From a virus (Duplodnaviria; Heunggongvirae; Uroviricota; Caudoviricetes), in the IMG/VR virus record IMGVR_UViG_2563366982_000005: a DNA stretch of 25,963 bases; one strand, 5' to 3'. The position numbers and the translations under genes were made by a program. The notes under the pieces are model-generated. The model saw only the letters and a list, made by a program, of their open reading frames with translations, made no database searches and was not told the origin of the DNA. This document shows positions 1,422-22,880 of this stretch, piece by piece. Each line of letters begins with the position of its first letter. Position 1 is the stretch's first letter.

Positions 1422-3893
1422 TTAAAAATCAGCCTGATTCGGGATCAGTTTTTGCCAGATAACTGAAACGTATTTTGCCTGGTAACGGGCGTCATCAAGT
1501 GCATTATGGCGCTCACCTTCGAATGGAATAGCCGTTCTGGCATCGAAGTCTATGGCTTTCCCCAGCTCAACGATTGTGCGTACATCGCGATCGTTGTAGT
1601 AACGCCACGGGCAGGGGATCCCCTGCCGTTCGTATGAACGGCGCAAAATCGTGTTGTCGAAGTTGGCTCCATTTCCCCAGACCTGAACAAAAAATTCACC
1701 GGAGTTTTCGTCGATAAATTCCCGCAATTGTAACAGTGCATCATCTAACGGGATTTCATCGGTCATAATGGCAGATTGCGCTTCGCGTGATTGCTTAAGC
1801 CACCATTTAATGGTGTCCCGATCAATGACCCCGCCAGCAGTTTCCAGATCGATAGTCTTACTAAATTCCGGTCCCATATCTCCGGTTTGCGGATCGAAAA
1901 ATATTGCACCTATTGAGATGATCGGGGCATCAGGATTTTTTCCCATGGTTTCAAGGTCGATCATTAGATGGTCACACGTCCTGCTGGTGGATGTGATTTC
2001 TTGATGACCGTTCACCTTAATTGAGTGATCTGCCGTCTCGCCAGTTTCATTATCGCTATCGTGATGCTGATTGCCGTCAGTGTTCTCCTTGTGTGGATGT
2101 TCAGCGCCTTCCATTTCCTCCGGATCATCTTCCTGAACTTCAACCTGATACTCTTCATCGAATGTTTCCTGGTATGTTGCGTCGCCCATCACCGCGCCAC
2201 AATCAGGGCAGTTGCCGCCGCCGGTCTGACCGCAGGCGGTGCAGACTTTTTCCACTTCCTGTTGCGCCACTGGTTCAGGCTGTTTCGTTTCTGGCTCGTT
2301 TTGTAACGCATTTGGGCTGTTTTGTTCCGCTTTCTGGCCGTTCTGTTCCGTTTCTTGCTGGTTCTGATTCACTGAATCGCGGGTTTCAATCCCCTTCACC
2401 CATTTCGGATCATTCGGGTCGCTAATCCCTGCAACAAATTCACCACGTGATACAGCAAGCAACTTATTGGCGTCAGGCTGGCTGATATTGGCTGCCTGCA
2501 TAATTTTGTTTACTTCGTCAGCGGTAACTTTTACCGGCTCTGGTTGTGCGATCGTGTCAGATGCACCAGTATTTTGTTGTGAACCAGAGTACGTGCCGTT
2601 TTTACGTGCGAAGTATTCCTCTTTTGTGATTTCCGTAGCTCCCAGGGCCAGTGCTTTTTCCAGACCAGAAAGTTTGTTTGCGCGACCGTATTTTTCGCCG
2701 TCCTTATCGGTGAAAAGGAAGTAGAACGGTCCCTCACGCTCTACAGATGGTTCGTCTTCCACTTCGCATTCGGTTTTTTCGTTGTCCGGCATTGCCGTTT
2801 CCACTGCATCAGTTTCTGGTACTGGCGACGAGAGAGTATCAGTTGCGCTCTGATTTCTTCCTTCATCTTCAAACACGCCCTTTGTAGTCAGGTATTCAGT
2901 AATGTATTTGTTCAGTGCCACAGGGTCTTTGTGAATGTCGATCGGACGTTCACGGACAAGGCCAAAAATAGTCTGGCGGTCGTAGCGAAGGGCATCAGGC
3001 TGTTTGCGCATTGATGCCGAGATACGCTTCCAGTCTTCGCGGTCGTTGTCGATAACTTCATTTTTTGCCCAGCGATGGATGCTGCCGTCAATGTTTCCGG
3101 CATCCACATCACCAGGCCAGAGAGCGTAGGCCAGTTCGTCATCCAGTGTTTTCCATGTCTGCTTGTATTCGCGATGAATGGCAGCAATGACCGGGCTGAT
3201 TTTTCCTGTTGAATTTTCACTGTGCTGTTGATTGGTTCTGGCGCGGGCGAGATCAACAACAGACGTGTATTTTCCGGTTTCCTTGCGTTCACCTTCGCGA
3301 CGTTTTTTCCAGATGCGCATCTCTGCCTGAATTTCGGGCCATTTGGCACCAGGCTTACATTTATGCTTAACCCACCCGATGGCATGCAGCTTAAGCTCCG
3401 GATACATGGCGTTAACTTCTGGCATTTTCATCAACGCTTCAACGATATGTCCGTCGAATGTTGCCATGTCTTCCTGCAACAATTCCTGTGCGCTAATAAC
3501 CATATCAACGGTGATGTTTTCACATGTGTCGAACTTAACCATGACAGCGTTCTGTACTTCAGGGGCCAACTTGTCAAAAGTGACGTTCATCGGATCTGAT
3601 TCAGTCTCAACCGGGACAAAGGAAGCAGACTCCTCATCCCAGCGGTTTTCCTGCATATATTCAGCATCCCAGGAATCGAGGGCAGGGCGGGGTATGCCGG
3701 GTTTATCCTCACAGACAATAAATTTATAAGCGCAGTCCTGAGCAGCCGGATAATGTTCCAGGAATTGCCAGTGAAATTTTGCGCGGGCGCGACGTTCATC
3801 ACCGGCTTCAATGGCAGTGGCTACAGCGACTGCACCTTCTTCCTTTATTGCCTGTTCGTCCGGAATGGCGGCGCAAATAAAGACTTTACTCAT
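1422..3893 (-). CDS. Large phage exonuclease-like protein with C-terminal DnaQ-like (DEDDh) 3'-5' exonuclease domain
   Basis: 823-aa ORF; C-terminal region contains motifs resembling Exo I (MIDLETMG) and Exo III (H-x4-D: HNALDDARY) of DEDD exonucleases; a Cys-rich zinc-ribbon-like stretch (CTACGQ...CPDCG) mid-protein; acidic low-complexity central region. Domain assignment from motif inspection only. Confidence 0.6.
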   Translation of the reverse strand: MSKVFICAAIPDEQAIKEEGAVAVATAIEAGDERRARAKFHWQFLEHYPAAQDCAYKFIVCEDKPGIPRPALDSWDAEYMQENRWDEESASFVPVETESDPMNVTFDKLAPEVQNAVMVKFDTCENITVDMVISAQELLQEDMATFDGHIVEALMKMPEVNAMYPELKLHAIGWVKHKCKPGAKWPEIQAEMRIWKKRREGERKETGKYTSVVDLARARTNQQHSENSTGKISPVIAAIHREYKQTWKTLDDELAYALWPGDVDAGNIDGSIHRWAKNEVIDNDREDWKRISASMRKQPDALRYDRQTIFGLVRERPIDIHKDPVALNKYITEYLTTKGVFEDEGRNQSATDTLSSPVPETDAVETAMPDNEKTECEVEDEPSVEREGPFYFLFTDKDGEKYGRANKLSGLEKALALGATEITKEEYFARKNGTYSGSQQNTGASDTIAQPEPVKVTADEVNKIMQAANISQPDANKLLAVSRGEFVAGISDPNDPKWVKGIETRDSVNQNQQETEQNGQKAEQNSPNALQNEPETKQPEPVAQQEVEKVCTACGQTGGGNCPDCGAVMGDATYQETFDEEYQVEVQEDDPEEMEGAEHPHKENTDGNQHHDSDNETGETADHSIKVNGHQEITSTSRTCDHLMIDLETMGKNPDAPIISIGAIFFDPQTGDMGPEFSKTIDLETAGGVIDRDTIKWWLKQSREAQSAIMTDEIPLDDALLQLREFIDENSGEFFVQVWGNGANFDNTILRRSYERQGIPCPWRYYNDRDVRTIVELGKAIDFDARTAIPFEGERHNALDDARYQAKYVSVIWQKLIPNQADF

Positions 3894-3985: not shown

Positions 3986-4177
3986 TTAAAGACCTGCCGG
4001 GATTTCGTTATTATCCTGGTGAATAACTTTATCGACCGGGTAACAGTTACCGGGAATTTTCTGTTCGGTTGCTGCAGTCACACACTCCTGCATTGTCCTG
4101 TGAACACTGACTGCAATATCAACTGGCTCTCCGGAAACAAGAAAAACTGTCAGAACAAGTGCAAATGCTGTATTCAT
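3986..4177 (-). CDS. ydfD: YdfD-like small membrane (lysis-associated) protein
   Basis: 63-aa reading frame starting at internal Met (MNTAFALVLTVFLVSGEP...) with hydrophobic N-terminal segment; start ATG overlaps dicB stop (ATGA); matches my recollection of Qin YdfD sequence and position downstream of dicB. Confidence 0.6.
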   Translation of the reverse strand: MNTAFALVLTVFLVSGEPVDIAVSVHRTMQECVTAATEQKIPGNCYPVDKVIHQDNNEIPAGL

Positions 4178-4362
4178 TGTGCACATCCTTTTTGTATCGG
4201 ACGTAAACGGGCCAGCATTGAAAGAATGCATATTTTATTTAATAACTCCCGTTCGTGTTTTCTCTTGTTAATGGCATCTTCAGTAAATACAGGGTTACTG
4301 ATAGTGACACCAATTTCAAAACAACCTTCAGACGTATTAACGTTTGGTAATAACGTTTCCAT
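4174..4362 (-). CDS. dicB: Cell division inhibitor DicB
   Basis: 62-aa frame METLLPNVNTSEGCFEIGVTISNPVFTEDAINKRKHERELLNKICILSMLARLRPIQKGCAQ inside the 97-aa track ORF; closely matches recalled DicB sequence; located directly downstream of a DicF-like sequence as in the dicBF operon. Confidence 0.75.
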   Translation of the reverse strand: METLLPNVNTSEGCFEIGVTISNPVFTEDAINKRKHERELLNKICILSMLARLRPIQKGCAQ

Positions 4363-4532
4363 TATCGCGTCCTCAACAATGAATTTTGTGATGCGGTGCC
4401 TGGTGCCTCCAGGTGACGTTAACCAGTTAACAATTAACGCCGGATACAGAGAATCCACCCATAACACTGTTTTTGGTTTTAACTGTTCCGCGTGCGCTCA
4501 GCCGCATTCACCACATCACAAAATTCACTTTA

Positions 4533-4589
4533 AAAAGGGCGGCAGAGCAGTCACGGAGTAAAACTGATACCGCCAAACGTCACCAGAAA
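4533..4589 (-). ncRNA. dicF: DicF small regulatory RNA
   Basis: Minus-strand sequence UUUCUGGUGACGUUUGGCGGUAUCAGUUUUACUCCGUGACUGCUCUGCCGCCCUUUUU matches the DicF sRNA as I recall it, ending in a GC stem plus U-run intrinsic terminator; positioned between ydfC-like genes and dicB. Confidence 0.7.
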
Positions 4590-14030: not shown

Positions 14031-14254
14031 TATGGCACCTGTGTTGTTCTGAGGTGAGCATATCACCTCTGTTCAGGTGGCCAAATTCAGTAAACCACTT
14101 CAGTCTCAGGCATGAACACCAAAAGGCAGATAGAGAAAAGCCCCAGTTAACATTACGCGTCCGGCAAGACGCTTAACATTAATCTGAGGCCATATCTATG
14201 CTCTACACACGTAGGTTAGCCTCTTACGTGCCGAAAGGCAAGGAGAAGCAGGCT

Positions 14255-14410
14255 ATGAAGCAGCAAAAGGCGATGCTAATCGCCCTGATCGTCATCTGTT
14301 TAACCGTCATTGTGACGGCACTGGTAACGAGGAAAGACCTCTGCGAGGTACGAATCCGAACCGGCCAGACGGAGGTCGCTGTCTTCACAGCTTACGAACC
14401 TGAGGAGTAA
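14255..14410 (+). CDS. hokD: Hok/Gef-family type I toxin (HokD/RelF-like)
   Basis: 51-aa frame MKQQKAMLIALIVICLTVIVTALVTRKDLCEVRIRTGQTEVAVFTAYEPEE with AAGGAG SD; matches HokD (RelF) as I recall it; single TM helix plus conserved Cys. Confidence 0.8.
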   Translation: MKQQKAMLIALIVICLTVIVTALVTRKDLCEVRIRTGQTEVAVFTAYEPEE

Positions 14411-19226: not shown

Positions 19227-19308
19227 TGTTGTTGATTTTTCCCGAATCTGTGGTAAATTTGCTCTAACGATGGGCGTTTTATGCCTGACGTTAGAAGATT
19301 TTTTACAC

Positions 19309-19330
19309 CCCGCCGCCTGGCGGGTTTTTT
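19309..19330 (+). terminator. tR'-like intrinsic terminator downstream of Q
   Basis: CCCGCC-GCCT-GGCGGG followed by TTTTTT, about 80 bp downstream of Q stop; a late promoter (PR'/qut) is expected in 19227-19308 but not confidently resolved. Confidence 0.55.
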
Positions 19331-20899: not shown

Positions 20900-20975
20900 G
20901 GCCCTTTAGCTCAGTGGTGAGAGCGAGCGACTCATAATCGCCAGGTCGCTGGTTCAAATCCAGCAAGGGCCACCA
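20900..20975 (+). tRNA. tRNA with CAU anticodon (Ile2-lysidine or Met type)
   Basis: 76 nt, acceptor stem GGCCCTT/AAGGGCC, anticodon loop CTCATAA, T-loop GGTTCAAATCC, 3' CCA encoded. Confidence 0.8.
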
Positions 20976-21950: not shown

Positions 21951-22178
21951 CTCACAATTCAGGCGGTTGACTGTTGTCTGGTTTGCGGGGAGTTTGTTAA
22001 AAGAAACTGGCATGGTGAATCCCCCTGTGCGGAGGGGCAATCAGCAACTGGTGTTTTGTCACCGACCCTTATCCTTTCTGTGCGGGTTCAGGTGCTGATA
22101 CTGAACTCACCGGGAGGCACCCGGCACCATGCAATGGCACATAGTGCCACTCTCCAGCCCCTCTCCGGAGGGGCTTTT
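21951..22178 (+). repeat. Structured repeat element, copy 1 (conserved hairpins plus terminator)
   Basis: Shares with copy 2 the blocks CTCACAATTCAG..TTGAC, TTTGTTAAAA, GCATGGTGAATCCCCCTGNGCGGAGGGGC, CTGAACTCACCGGGAGGCACCCGGCACCATG and AGCCCCTCTCCGGAGGGGCTTT; ends in a GC hairpin followed by a T-run. Confidence 0.6.
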
Positions 22179-22369
22179 CTGTGCCGGATACATCACAGTT
22201 TCTGGAACCTTAGGTACTACAGTATCAGTCAGGGTGCTATATTTTCAGATGTGATGAAAGCCTGTCAGCAGGCAGGGCGTATCGGAAATGACCCAGTAGA
22301 GAAAACGTTGACTCAGATACCGGTGCTGAGTTACCGGGAAACCGGCATCACATGACCGCTATCCTTCCA

Positions 22370-22396
22370 GGCCCATCCGCTCCGGTGGGCCTTTTT
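22370..22396 (+). terminator. Intrinsic terminator-like hairpin between the repeat copies
   Basis: GGCCCA-(loop)-TGGGCC followed by TTTTT. Confidence 0.45.
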
Positions 22397-22433
22397 ACTG
22401 CAGAAAACAGGTTCCCCGTTAAATGCTATGTTG

Positions 22434-22665
22434 CTCACAATTCAGTAAGTTGACAGTTGCCTGTCAGACTGGGCATTTGTTAAAAAAATTTCGCATGGTG
22501 AATCCCCCTGAGCGGAGGGGCGACTGGTGACGGTATAATCTCTGATTATCAAAACGAGAATGACGCGGGTTTAGTGGCACCGGGCTGAACTCACCGGGAG
22601 GCACCCGGCACCATGTGCATGATGATACAGATACGCGGCTTTAGCCCCTCTCCGGAGGGGCTTTC
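22434..22665 (+). repeat. Structured repeat element, copy 2
   Basis: Same conserved blocks as copy 1 in the same order, with divergent spacers; terminal hairpin GCCCCTC-TCCG-GAGGGGC plus T-rich tail. Confidence 0.6.
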
Positions 22666-22880
22666 TTGTGGGCAAAAAAAGCCCGAGTGGGTTCGGGCAA
22701 CAGCATGAGATATACATTTTTATAATCGAATGGATTTTAACCAGAATTCATAAGGCTGCGCAACTGCGCGGTCTTTTTCGAATTGCGGGCTGTCGTCTCT
22801 CTTCTGCCATTGTCCTGTAACTTCCGGACTTCAGCCCGCTCCTTATTTTACTCACAATATTATCCCGGCCGGGAGGATTC

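Follow-up and report, generated by a model that had tools for sequence, protein, structure and literature searches.

A structured RNA domain related to STnc100 and PasD in the dicF-dicB spacer of a lambdoid prophage, with a closing helix that is a probable substrate of RNase III

The DNA analyzed here, the 25,963-nt IMG/VR virus record IMGVR_UViG_2563366982_000005 (this whole stretch is called the window below), is a lambdoid prophage integrated beside ompW, and an identical copy is present in Escherichia coli WP3-W18-CRE-03. Its minus strand carries the early-left operon, which runs from the repressor-side promoter through ydfA, ydfB, ydfC, dicF, a spacer, dicB, ydfD, exo and xis to int. The plus strand carries the replication genes, hokD, rusA and Q (Pfam Antiterm), then a lambda-like PR'-tR' module, and downstream of this module a methyltransferase gene, three tRNA genes, terB, a DUF3927 gene, an array of STnc100 RNAs, a NanS-p esterase gene and a holin gene, with AsxR on the opposite strand. 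The spacer between dicF and dicB is unannotated in RefSeq. Here we present evidence that it holds a complete domain of the STnc100/PasD family of small RNAs (sRNAs), of a variant that we call leader-type, and that the helix closing this domain probably serves as a substrate of RNase III. We consider this reading as a whole to be likely, and we have high confidence in the identity and the structure of the domain. The coordinates of the features are collected in Table 1.

According to the initial annotation, a motif of about 22 nt upstream of dicB recurs, with a compensatory base change, in two repeat copies in the late region. A pattern scan of the whole window with TCACCNGGAGGCACCNGGCACC gave exactly three matches: the two repeat copies were found at the very sites reported (22107-22128 and 22591-22612), and the motif upstream of dicB was also found, although one base lower than reported (4395-4416 instead of 4396-4417). 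None of 100 dinucleotide-preserving shuffles of the window matched TCACCNGGAGGCACCNGGCACC, with up to two mismatches tolerated. The two differences between the copies (T/G and A/C) together make up the third pair of a 5-bp stem, which is U-A at dicB and G-C in the late region, so that the compensatory change is a true pair swap. Furthermore, a scan of IMG/VR in which both middle pairs were left free (TCACCNNGAGGCACNNGGCACC) returned 130 instances in 120 loci, with the middle-pair combinations GG/CC (100), TG/CA (29) and GG/TC (one, a G.U pair), every one of which is pairable. No paper containing the motif string was found by literature search. Lambdoid phages share short boundary sequences at module junctions, and the location of the motif at accessory-gene junctions would fit a feature acting at the DNA level, such as a recombination boundary or a protein-binding site, if not a chance repeat. 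However, zero chance matches are expected, the G.U pairs are strand-specific and would be mismatches on the other strand, and the covariation keeps pairing, not sequence; the probability of an explanation of this kind is practically negligible. Nor does the motif behave as a short repeat scattered at random, and the hairpin is always embedded in a larger domain.

This larger domain is that of STnc100 (Rfam RF02076). Rfam calls two members in the late region, at 21981-22186 (139.7 bits) and 22464-22673 (165.5 bits), both above the gathering score of 47, and the 22-mer corresponds to positions about 125-146 of the model. A permissive Rfam scan of positions 4300-4560 (261 nt) showed that, on the minus strand, 4330-4539 matches STnc100 at full length, with 38.7 bits and an E value of 2.8e-7 (2.8e-5 when the whole window is scanned). 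As this match is significant but sub-threshold, we file the dicF-dicB copy as a related variant and do not call it an STnc100 member. It resembles STnc100 in matching the full length of the model with the same helices, and it differs in having neither a terminator nor a promoter-like site, in its 21-bp closing helix, and in the coding gene that lies downstream.

We conclude with high confidence that the 22-mer is made up of hairpin P5 and the inner 3' strand of the closing helix P1, within a pseudoknotted domain of 115-145 nt. The domain, which folds autonomously and constitutes the conserved 5' portion of the STnc100/PasD sRNAs, comprises P1, P2 (5 bp, with a pentaloop and a bulged A), P3, which is variable, P4, a pseudoknot that joins J2/3 to L4, and P5, which follows P4 and stacks on P1; no linker separates P5 from the P1 3' strand, and the stack measures ~13 bp. 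The initial annotation was therefore right in seeing one structural RNA motif that recurs in distinct prophage transcripts, but the motif is not a free-standing 22-mer, because the homology spans the whole ~125-nt domain. The similar flank that it had pointed out (xAACxTCACC) corresponds to the 3' strand of the neighboring hairpin P4.

Folding and covariation, which had been proposed as a check, bear out this architecture. Firstly, the three cores, folded separately and without constraints (minimum free energy, MFE), all adopt it, while their helices differ in sequence. According to the Rfam structure line, the P1 5' strand, GCAUGGUG, lies ~110 nt upstream of the 3' strand, CACCAUGC, which abuts P5; the closing helix is GCAUGGUG/CACCAUGC in the late copies versus UGAUGUGGUG/CACCGCAUCA at dicB, which provides three further compensated pairs. 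P4 is GGGUUCAG..CUGAACUC in the late copies versus GGCGUUAAUU..GGUUAACGUC at dicB. In the case of P2, the dicB copy (GCGGC-UGAGC-GC-A-CGC) and the STnc100 copies (CCCCC-UGUGC-GG-A-GGG(G)) have the shape in common, but the stem sequence is wholly swapped (GCGGC..GCGC versus CCCCC..GGGG). Secondly, compensated pairs are found across the family. Twenty-nine representatives that are less than 85% identical to each other were aligned with MAFFT without structural information, and RNAalifold, run on this alignment, returned P1, P2 and P5, in which both sides had changed at 8 of 18 pairs. The covariance model built from the same alignment, R1, matched 139 domains in 100 sources, plus 124 in 80 loci of one-genome-per-species bacterial assemblies, and it scored the dicF-dicB copy at 85.5 bits over 4387-4520. 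When 100 distinct sequences were aligned to R1, standard pairs filled 94.3% of the cells, versus 77.3% after shuffling and 41-44% when the partners were slid by 1-3 columns; double-sided changes occurred at 18 of the 26 pairs. G.U is frequent among the conserved pairs (for example, in 68 of 100 sequences at one P4 pair), and because so many conserved pairs are G.U, the strand of the domain is fixed.

The pseudoknot involves 6-9 nt located just after P2 that are complementary to the P4 loop in nearly all members, with sequences that differ widely: AUCAGCA/UGCUGAU, CCAGUC/GACUGG, CUGGUG/CACCGG, CAGUUAA/UUAACUG, CUAGGC/GUCUAG, ACUGGAUA/UAUCCAGU and GCCAGGUC/GACCUGGC are among the strand pairs. 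For 162 distinct segment pairs, the longest duplex had a mean length of 6.38 bp, versus 4.52 +/- 0.08 bp (maximum 4.72) when the loops were permuted, and 91 distinct complementary duplexes of at least 6 bp were found. The pseudoknot is present in the dicB copy and also in a diverged fourth copy described below, whereas the Rfam STnc100 structure line printed for these matches is without it. A kissing interaction between the loops of P5 and P2 was also considered and rejected, as the candidate UGC/GCA pairing is unconserved.

Table 1. Coordinates of the RNA domains and associated features in the window
Feature	Position	Strand	Remarks
dicB coding sequence	4174..4362	minus	Shine-Dalgarno GAGGA 4370-4374, 4 nt past closing helix
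Whole leader-type STnc100-like domain, including extended closing helix	4379..4528	minus	between DicF terminator and dicB ribosome-binding site
Closing helix P0/P1, 3' strand	4379..4398	minus	CACCGCAUCACAAAAUUCAU
22-mer at dicB site	4395..4416	minus	TCACCTGGAGGCACCAGGCACC; T and A at the two N positions; P4 3'-strand last 2 nt (UC), linker A, P5 (CCUGG-AGGCA-CCAGG), P1 3'-strand first 4 nt (CACC)
P5 hairpin	4399..4413	minus	CCUGG-AGGCA-CCAGG, stacked directly on P1
P4 hairpin	4415..4441	minus	GGCGUUAAUU-GUUAACU-GGUUAACGUC
Pseudoknot 3' strand, in P4 loop	4424..4430	minus	UUAACUG
Pseudoknot 5' strand, in J2/3	4479..4485	minus	CAGUUAA
P2 hairpin	4490..4505	minus	GCGGC-UGAGC-GC-A-CGC
Closing helix P0/P1, 5' strand	4509..4528	minus	GUGAAUUUUGUGAUGUGGUG
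DicF sRNA, 53-nt form of K-12 annotation	4537..4589	minus	Rfam DicF 76.7 bits; terminator 8 nt upstream of closing helix
Lambda-like late promoter module	~19237-19330	+	directly after Q: TTGATT-17-TAAATT, AACGATGGG (sigma-dependent pause element of lambda PR'; AACGAT), terminator CCCCGCCGCCTGGCGGGTTTTTT ~50 nt downstream
STnc100 copy 1, domain	22006..22136	+	R1 96.1 bits
Copy 1, P1	22010-22017/22125-22132	+	
Copy 1, P2	22021-22037	+	
Copy 1, pseudoknot	22040-22046 x 22093-22099	+	
Copy 1, P4	22084-22108	+	
Copy 1, 22-mer	22107-22128	+	TCACCGGGAGGCACCCGGCACC; G and C at the N positions
Copy 1, P5	22110-22124	+	
Copy 1, terminator	22156-22175	+	
Fourth, diverged member	22245..22357	+	flanked by the two strong copies; R1 29.2 bits, E ~1e-6; P5 CCGG-GAAA-CCGG; P1 GAUGUGAUG/CAUCACAU; pseudoknot kept
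Fourth member, own terminator	22369-22392	+	
STnc100 copy 2, domain	22489..22620	+	R1 97.4 bits
Copy 2, P1	22493-22500/22609-22616	+	
Copy 2, P2	22504-22520	+	
Copy 2, pseudoknot	22524-22529 x 22578-22583	+	
Copy 2, P4	22567-22592	+	
Copy 2, 22-mer	22591-22612	+	TCACCGGGAGGCACCCGGCACC; G and C at the N positions
Copy 2, P5	22594-22608	+	
Copy 2, terminator	22643-22662	+	

When the dicF-dicB copy is folded together with its flanks, the MFE structure contains an uninterrupted 21-bp closing helix (4509-4529 x 4378-4398, including two G.U pairs), and the fold energy of the spacer is -84.6 kcal/mol (z = -4.4). No terminator-like sites were found between 4174 and 4395 on the minus strand, and in the Rfam alignment the terminator positions of the model (~175-206) are taken up by the dicB start region. 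In the same fold, the GAGG of the dicB Shine-Dalgarno sequence (4370-4374) pairs weakly, mostly by G.U pairs, with the U-tract of the DicF terminator (4531-4536), outside the 21-bp helix; in the model, this pairing could add translational masking in an uncleaved read-through RNA. Pairing of the DicF 5' seed with ACGUCACC of the adjacent domain was rejected: it is an 8-nt match in the window that, by inspection, is unconserved with the DicF-like paralogues.

The same 174-nt spacer is carried by strain MG1655 (1649435-1649608), where the 22-mer has one change, the final C to T (CACT, not CACC), which gives a G.U pair in P1 (locus L123, 1936-2109). Codon 2 of dicB is AAA in K-12 and GAA in the window. 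Of 5426 complete E. coli genomes, 4310, K-12 among them, have at least 80% of the length of the spacer, in up to nine places per genome. These data bear on the view that P5 is the base-pairing seed of a trans-acting sRNA and that the copy at dicB is a functionless, decaying relic. [quoted passage not shown] However, the stretch in question is base-paired with compensatory variants, as predicted by structural constraint and not by a seed, the dicB-type copy keeps all helices and the pseudoknot, with compensatory changes both within its lineage and across genera, and presence in so large a share of the E. coli genomes is unlike the pattern of a relic. We regard this view as very unlikely.

The position of the closing helix directs attention to the processing of the dicBF operon. 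A 72-nt form of DicF with an RNase III-dependent 3' end has been described (Faubladier 1990, as summarised by Balasubramanian et al. 2016, PMC5069750). Counted from the K-12 5' end (window position 4589), the 3' end of this form lies 19 nt past that of the 53-nt form, at 4518|4517, which falls after the 11th base of the 5' strand of the helix; with an error of 5 nt in either direction it would still be inside. The guess that the motif might be a processing site thus finds indirect support: starting from the last four bases of the motif, CACCGCAUCACAAAAUUCAU forms a helix of 20-21 bp with the sequence just after the DicF terminator, and the published RNase III-dependent end of DicF maps inside this helix. 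At least 20 bp (about two turns) of uninterrupted double-stranded RNA, as for RNase III sites, are provided by the 21-bp closing helix. In an independent RNA-seq screen for RNase III targets, K-12 position 1649470 ("intergenic dicF-dicB") had 0 and 0 reads in the wild type versus 26 in the rnc mutant and was flagged as a known site (PMC5371410, Table S1); this position is window 4501, inside P2. In addition, a read-through ydfABC-dicFB-ydfD transcript has been detected and RNase III was found to be important for the RNAs of the operon, in a study in which the spacer is not described (Ragunathan et al. 2023, PMC10448788).

On these grounds we propose the following scheme. The leader-type copy, which is without its own promoter or terminator, would be transcribed only within read-through RNAs of the dicBF operon, and its P0/P1 closing helix would be the substrate of the RNase III cut that makes the 72-nt DicF. 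A staggered partner cut is predicted at 4388|4387, and the products would be the 72-nt DicF, a domain RNA of ~130 nt (4517-4388) and a dicB message with a leader of ~25 nt. The excised domain would keep a 9-bp P1, matching that of ordinary STnc100 members. Our confidence in the excision of the domain by RNase III is moderate. Long-range RNase III stems that excise structured RNA are found in pre-16S and pre-23S rRNA, at the R sites of phage T7 early mRNA and at the lambda N-leader site. As in those stems, a helix of at least 20 bp would be formed by sequences flanking a folded RNA or lying between phage cistrons and be cut by the host RNase III; unlike in those stems, the cut in the 3' strand is in our case a prediction, and the likeness is one of mechanism only, with no sequence relationship.

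The members of the family fall into a standard type and a leader type. At least 137 of 216 standard members have an intrinsic terminator within 110 nt (strict detector). Of 167 standard copies, 24 have a strong sigma-70-like site (e.g. TTGAAA-17-TAAATT) at the right distance for a transcript beginning with the first base of P1, versus one of 835 control positions. P1 and the terminator are separated by 25-70 nt of unconserved linker, and the terminators of different members have unrelated sequences. An open reading frame (ORF) could be called downstream of 79 of the 157 standard copies that stand last or alone; representatives of the ORF clusters, compared with Pfam, belong to three unrelated holin families (clusters of 15, 8 and 2), the NanS-p esterases (12), KdgM-type porins (9) and GnsAB (4). 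Likewise, the next gene after the G/C-type sites in IMG/VR, where callable, is most often one for a holin, an esterase or a porin, and none of 103 such sites has dicF or dicB within 600 nt, so the motif, which the initial annotation had tentatively linked to DicF/dicB biology, is not specific to it. A small ORF starting from the AUG in CACCAUG was rejected, since the AUG is unconserved (CACCACG, CACCGCA, CACCUGU and others) and the frames run through the terminators.

Leader-type members are recognisable by a GCGGC-type P2. None of 20 such copies has a promoter-like site placed for a start at P1, 32 of 34 are without a terminator, and they stop 4-35 nt before a start codon. Whereas the closing helix has a median length of 6 bp in standard copies, 12 of 25 distinct leader-type closing helices have 22-28 bp (all of them DicF-linked ones from Escherichia/Shigella, bar one from Lelliottia), and the other 13 have 2-15 bp as extended by a crude script. 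In E. coli and Shigella, the conserved joint UUUUUAAAGUGAAUUUUGUGAUG links leader-type copies to DicF, or to a DicF-like terminator hairpin, on their upstream side, and they precede dicB or other small genes (MIAHHFGTDEIPRQC..., a gene for an Ash-family protein, MIPIITPRSDW...). In Lelliottia, Klebsiella, Buttiauxella, Pseudescherichia and Scandinavium, compensation preserves the long helix in spite of different flanks. Ten leader-type sequences from several genera, in an unfitted alignment, show compensation at 18 of 35 pairs, some of them in the extended closing helix. The T/A variant of P5 marks the DicF-linked Escherichia/Shigella lineage, while other leader-type members carry G/C or G/U.

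The RNAs that precede these domains deserve a separate comment. DicF-like sRNA paralogues located upstream of the domain in six IMG/VR loci (L008, L032, L042, L045, L051 and L055) have the same terminator base and a conserved upstream sequence, CUGUGUGUAGUC, with different loops and 5' regions, and such paralogues precede leader-type domains ahead of genes other than dicB. In one E. coli locus (L125) the order is reversed, with the domain first and the DicF-like hairpin second, as if DicF-type RNAs formed the 3' part of a domain-bearing transcript.

The arrangement of terminators and genes around the domain raises the question of whether it could be a cis-acting sensor, that is, a riboswitch or attenuator that, on binding a ligand or factor, would control the formation of the terminator that follows or the access to the dicB ribosome-binding site. 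Its complexity recalls that of aptamers, as it combines a pseudoknot with a multi-way junction and has invariant nucleotides in its junctions; downstream of standard copies come an intrinsic terminator and, after it, same-strand genes, and leader-type copies end close to a start codon. Moreover, in the window the 3' strand of P2 (GGAGGGGC) resembles the 3' strand of the terminator. Strand exchange between P2 and the terminator was nevertheless rejected as a riboswitch platform, because the resemblance is true only for the late-type copies of E. coli and terminators elsewhere are unrelated. There is no conserved alternative pairing, given that the linkers are unconserved and the terminators unrelated between members. 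Furthermore, the 21-bp P0/P1 helix is too stable for switching, back-to-back arrays under one terminator are unlike the use of one sensor per platform, and members accumulate as terminated, Hfq-dependent sRNAs. A sensor is very unlikely.

Head-to-tail arrays of domains occur in Pantoea, Superficieibacter, Citrobacter and Enterobacter. In Pantoea formicae (L203, reverse strand 3243-3867), a promoter-like site is followed by three domains spaced by 4 and 13 nt, a fourth domain 137 nt further on, one terminator and a holin gene. In this locus and three others (L188, L197 and L164), between three and six domains form an array, separated by as little as 4-13 nt, under one promoter-like site and with one terminator and a holin gene immediately downstream. 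Since there are repeats that consist of the domain only, since the leader type is without the 3' linker and terminator, and since the linkers of standard members are variable, we argue that the conserved functional unit is the domain itself. Closely spaced arrays also resemble tRNA operons, and a domain located between an sRNA and an ORF, with a cloverleaf-like order of helices and a ~13-bp stack of P5 on P1 without linker, might be taken for tRNA-like punctuation, in which this stack would imitate the acceptor and T arms and be excised by RNase P or other enzymes of tRNA processing. However, neither ARAGORN nor the Rfam tRNA model makes a call on the domain, there is no conserved 3' CCA, the loop of P5 has 5 nt and not the 7 nt of a T-loop, and RNase III is the only nuclease documented in the dicF-dicB spacer. 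The probability of tRNA mimicry is thus very low.

P5 is the only helix that is held at the level of sequence, while P1, P2, P4 and the pseudoknot drift and compensate. Of 207 distinct domains, 169 have it as CCGGG-AGGCA-CCCGG and 17 as CCUGG-AGGCA-CCAGG. The other variants keep the hairpin, with compensated changes at pair 1 (UCGGG..CCCGA), pair 3 (CCAGG..CCUGG) or pair 4 (CCGUG..CACGG), or with G.U pairs, and a few diverged members have other loops (AAGCA, GAAA or UCUAACGAG). The terminal CACC of the 22-mer is less constrained, as illustrated by the Pantoea arrays, in which the inner P1 pairs are AACG/CGUU or UAUG/CAUA. Because P5 is near-invariant while the other helices compensate, we infer that it may be a surface recognized by a conserved partner, a proposal in which our confidence, based on sequence conservation, is low to moderate. 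One particular partner could be an N-type arginine-rich antiterminator or another phage RNA-binding protein, with P5 as a boxB-like site. The boxB hairpins of lambda and P22 have a 5-bp stem and a 5-nt loop; P5 has these dimensions and is sequence-invariant across RNAs that otherwise drift. On the other hand, the AGGCA loop is without the G1...A5 pattern of the GNRA-like boxB pentaloops, the annotation of the prophage lists no N gene, the sites do not coincide with the starts of the early operons, the hairpin never stands alone, and no boxA-like element was seen beside P5, where no search aimed at boxA was made. A boxB-like role is thus a very improbable one.

Structured RNAs that act on transcription by themselves are also known from lambdoid phages. 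The put RNAs of HK022 (putL and putR) are, like the domain, located just after promoters or inside early operons, but they differ in consisting of two stem-loops of ~70 nt in total and in acting as autonomous antiterminators, whereas STnc100 members terminate right after the domain. A put-like element, whose nascent RNA would bind RNA polymerase and allow read-through of terminators in lambdoid phages without N, would fit the niche of the HK022 put sites: copies precede the late and lysis genes and are also present within the early-left operon, many standard copies begin at the 5' end of the transcript, as putL does, and no N-like gene is annotated in the prophage. However, the best match of R1 in the whole HK022 genome, with filters off, had 9.0 bits and an E value of 0.88 and was not at the put sites, so that homology was rejected, and the put sequences share no architecture with the domain. 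Furthermore, the prophage has its own Q protein and PR'-tR', members are seen in lysogens as terminated sRNAs of ~200 nt, and autonomous read-through into holin genes would be lethal. Finally, the DicF terminator precedes the dicB copy instead of following it, and arrays are not expected for put. We consider it extremely unlikely that the domain is such an element.

Closer relatives are found among the prophage sRNAs. PasD1 and PasD2 are validated Hfq-dependent prophage sRNAs of enteropathogenic E. coli (Pearl Mizrahi 2021), and they have been reported as structural homologues of STnc100 that adjoin genes for a sialate esterase and a holin (Zhu, Shabalina and Storz 2026 preprint). An esterase and a holin gene are arranged likewise in the window, PasD having been compared by description. 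In these papers the members of the family are regarded as sRNAs that base-pair through seeds, and dicF and dicB go unmentioned in the PasD/STnc100 preprint. In Stx2 (Shiga toxin 2) phages, STnc100 has been reported to sit 75 nt downstream of stx2. Neither the arrays nor the leader-type subfamily is in the Rfam STnc100 structure line printed for our matches.

Full-length domains occur in about 24 genera of Enterobacterales, in prophages and usually just upstream of lysis or late accessory genes. The genera include Escherichia, Shigella, Salmonella, Citrobacter, Klebsiella, Raoultella, Enterobacter, Kosakonia, Lelliottia, Leclercia, Kluyvera, Trabulsiella, Buttiauxella, Atlantibacter, Phytobacter, Scandinavium, Superficieibacter, Silvania, Pantoea, Erwinia, Rosenbergiella and Serratia. 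The domain was also found on a Pantoea megaplasmid, and in Rahnella there is only a 32-nt match that ends at the edge of the locus. Among phage records, the domain occurs mostly in Stx-converting phages, where it is unannotated or lies under "hypothetical protein" calls. Three pattern matches, in Nocardioides, Streptomyces and Isosphaeraceae, are without the domain, and their number is about that expected by chance for a 19-base pattern in 596 Gb. Full-length domains of the enterobacterial type, with 88-92 bits, were seen in assemblies labeled Prolixibacteraceae, Mucilaginibacter (a metagenome-assembled genome) and Vagococcus (L136, L180 and L199); these out-of-phylum domains are most likely contaminating enterobacterial contigs.

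In the late region of the window, three members lie in tandem, two strong and one diverged, each followed by its own intrinsic terminator, with the esterase and lysis genes just downstream. The diverged member, the fourth in the window, scores 30.1 bits with Rfam STnc100 over 22225-22398, below the gathering score; a three-unit array with a diverged member recurs in several IMG/VR loci, and the diverged copy may be another named Pas sRNA. The possibility that the STnc100 copies are PR' leader RNAs, analogous to 6S RNA, was ruled out, as PR' and tR' sit directly after Q. Several other RNAs were noted in the window. On the minus strand, a match to AsxR exactly at its gathering score (63 bits) lies at 22674-22728; an AgvB-like match (43 bits) on the opposite strand overlaps it, and both share a bidirectional terminator just after STnc100 copy 2. 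A match to the sok antitoxin RNA (14033-14260, plus strand; 57.5 bits versus a gathering score of 59) adjoins the annotated hokD toxin gene. A tRNA with a CAU anticodon (20900-20975, plus strand) is called Met by ARAGORN and tRNA-Ile in RefSeq; it is probably of the lysidine-modified Ile2 type, typical of the ileZ-argN-argO clusters of Stx phages.

Several points weigh against our reading of the dicF-dicB copy, or against parts of it. Firstly, by the rule of Rfam this copy is not a called member, as its score is below the gathering score. Secondly, the alignments of domains used for the pair statistics (A4 and A5) were fitted to R1, which favors the structure, and the sequences are related to each other; the shuffle controls support the structure and are not to be read as probabilities. 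Thirdly, the position of the RNase III-dependent end comes from arithmetic on the published lengths, in the summary cited above, and not from a single-nucleotide map. Fourthly, the absence of wild-type reads at K-12 1649470 suggests that an excised domain does not accumulate in K-12 under the conditions of that screen and may be degraded, unless RNAs of ~130 nt were lost in library preparation. Finally, with regard to P5, the binding of a partner is suggested by conservation, and the AGGCA loop is not indispensable to the fold, since diverged members carry GAAA or UCUAACGAG.

Some of the elements on which we build were already known, namely the STnc100 family in Rfam, the PasD sRNAs and their relation to STnc100, the location downstream of stx2, and the 72-nt DicF made by RNase III. 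In the literature searched, we did not find the dicF-dicB spacer described as a member of the family, nor the pseudoknot, the leader-type subfamily, the arrays or the identity of the RNase III duplex. The pseudoknotted core, the leader-type subfamily and the tandem arrays together lead us to argue that it is the conserved domain, and not a base-pairing seed, that is maintained by selection. As a tentative extension, which we hold to be possible rather than probable, the selected unit would be the folded domain itself instead of the variable 3' seed region through which STnc100 and PasD are understood at present: a trans-acting pseudoknotted RNA spread by prophages across Enterobacterales, acting as a protein decoy or scaffold or as a ligand binder, with P5 as its recognition surface, and made in three ways, from its own promoter and terminator, in multi-domain arrays, or by RNase III excision from operons of the dicBF type.

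The dicBF locus, which most E. coli carry, is a textbook cryptic-prophage locus under study since the 1980s, and its spacer is a complete structured RNA, supported by covariation and with homology to an abundant prophage sRNA family. The closing helix offers a structural explanation for the RNase III cut reported in 1990, and it predicts a second cut, a 130-nt product and a shortened dicB leader. If the tentative extension is true, the dicBF operon of K-12 encodes a third, so far overlooked RNA product, between dicF and dicB. The function of a very widespread prophage RNA, which is also located immediately downstream of stx2 in Stx-converting phages, becomes directly testable in K-12.

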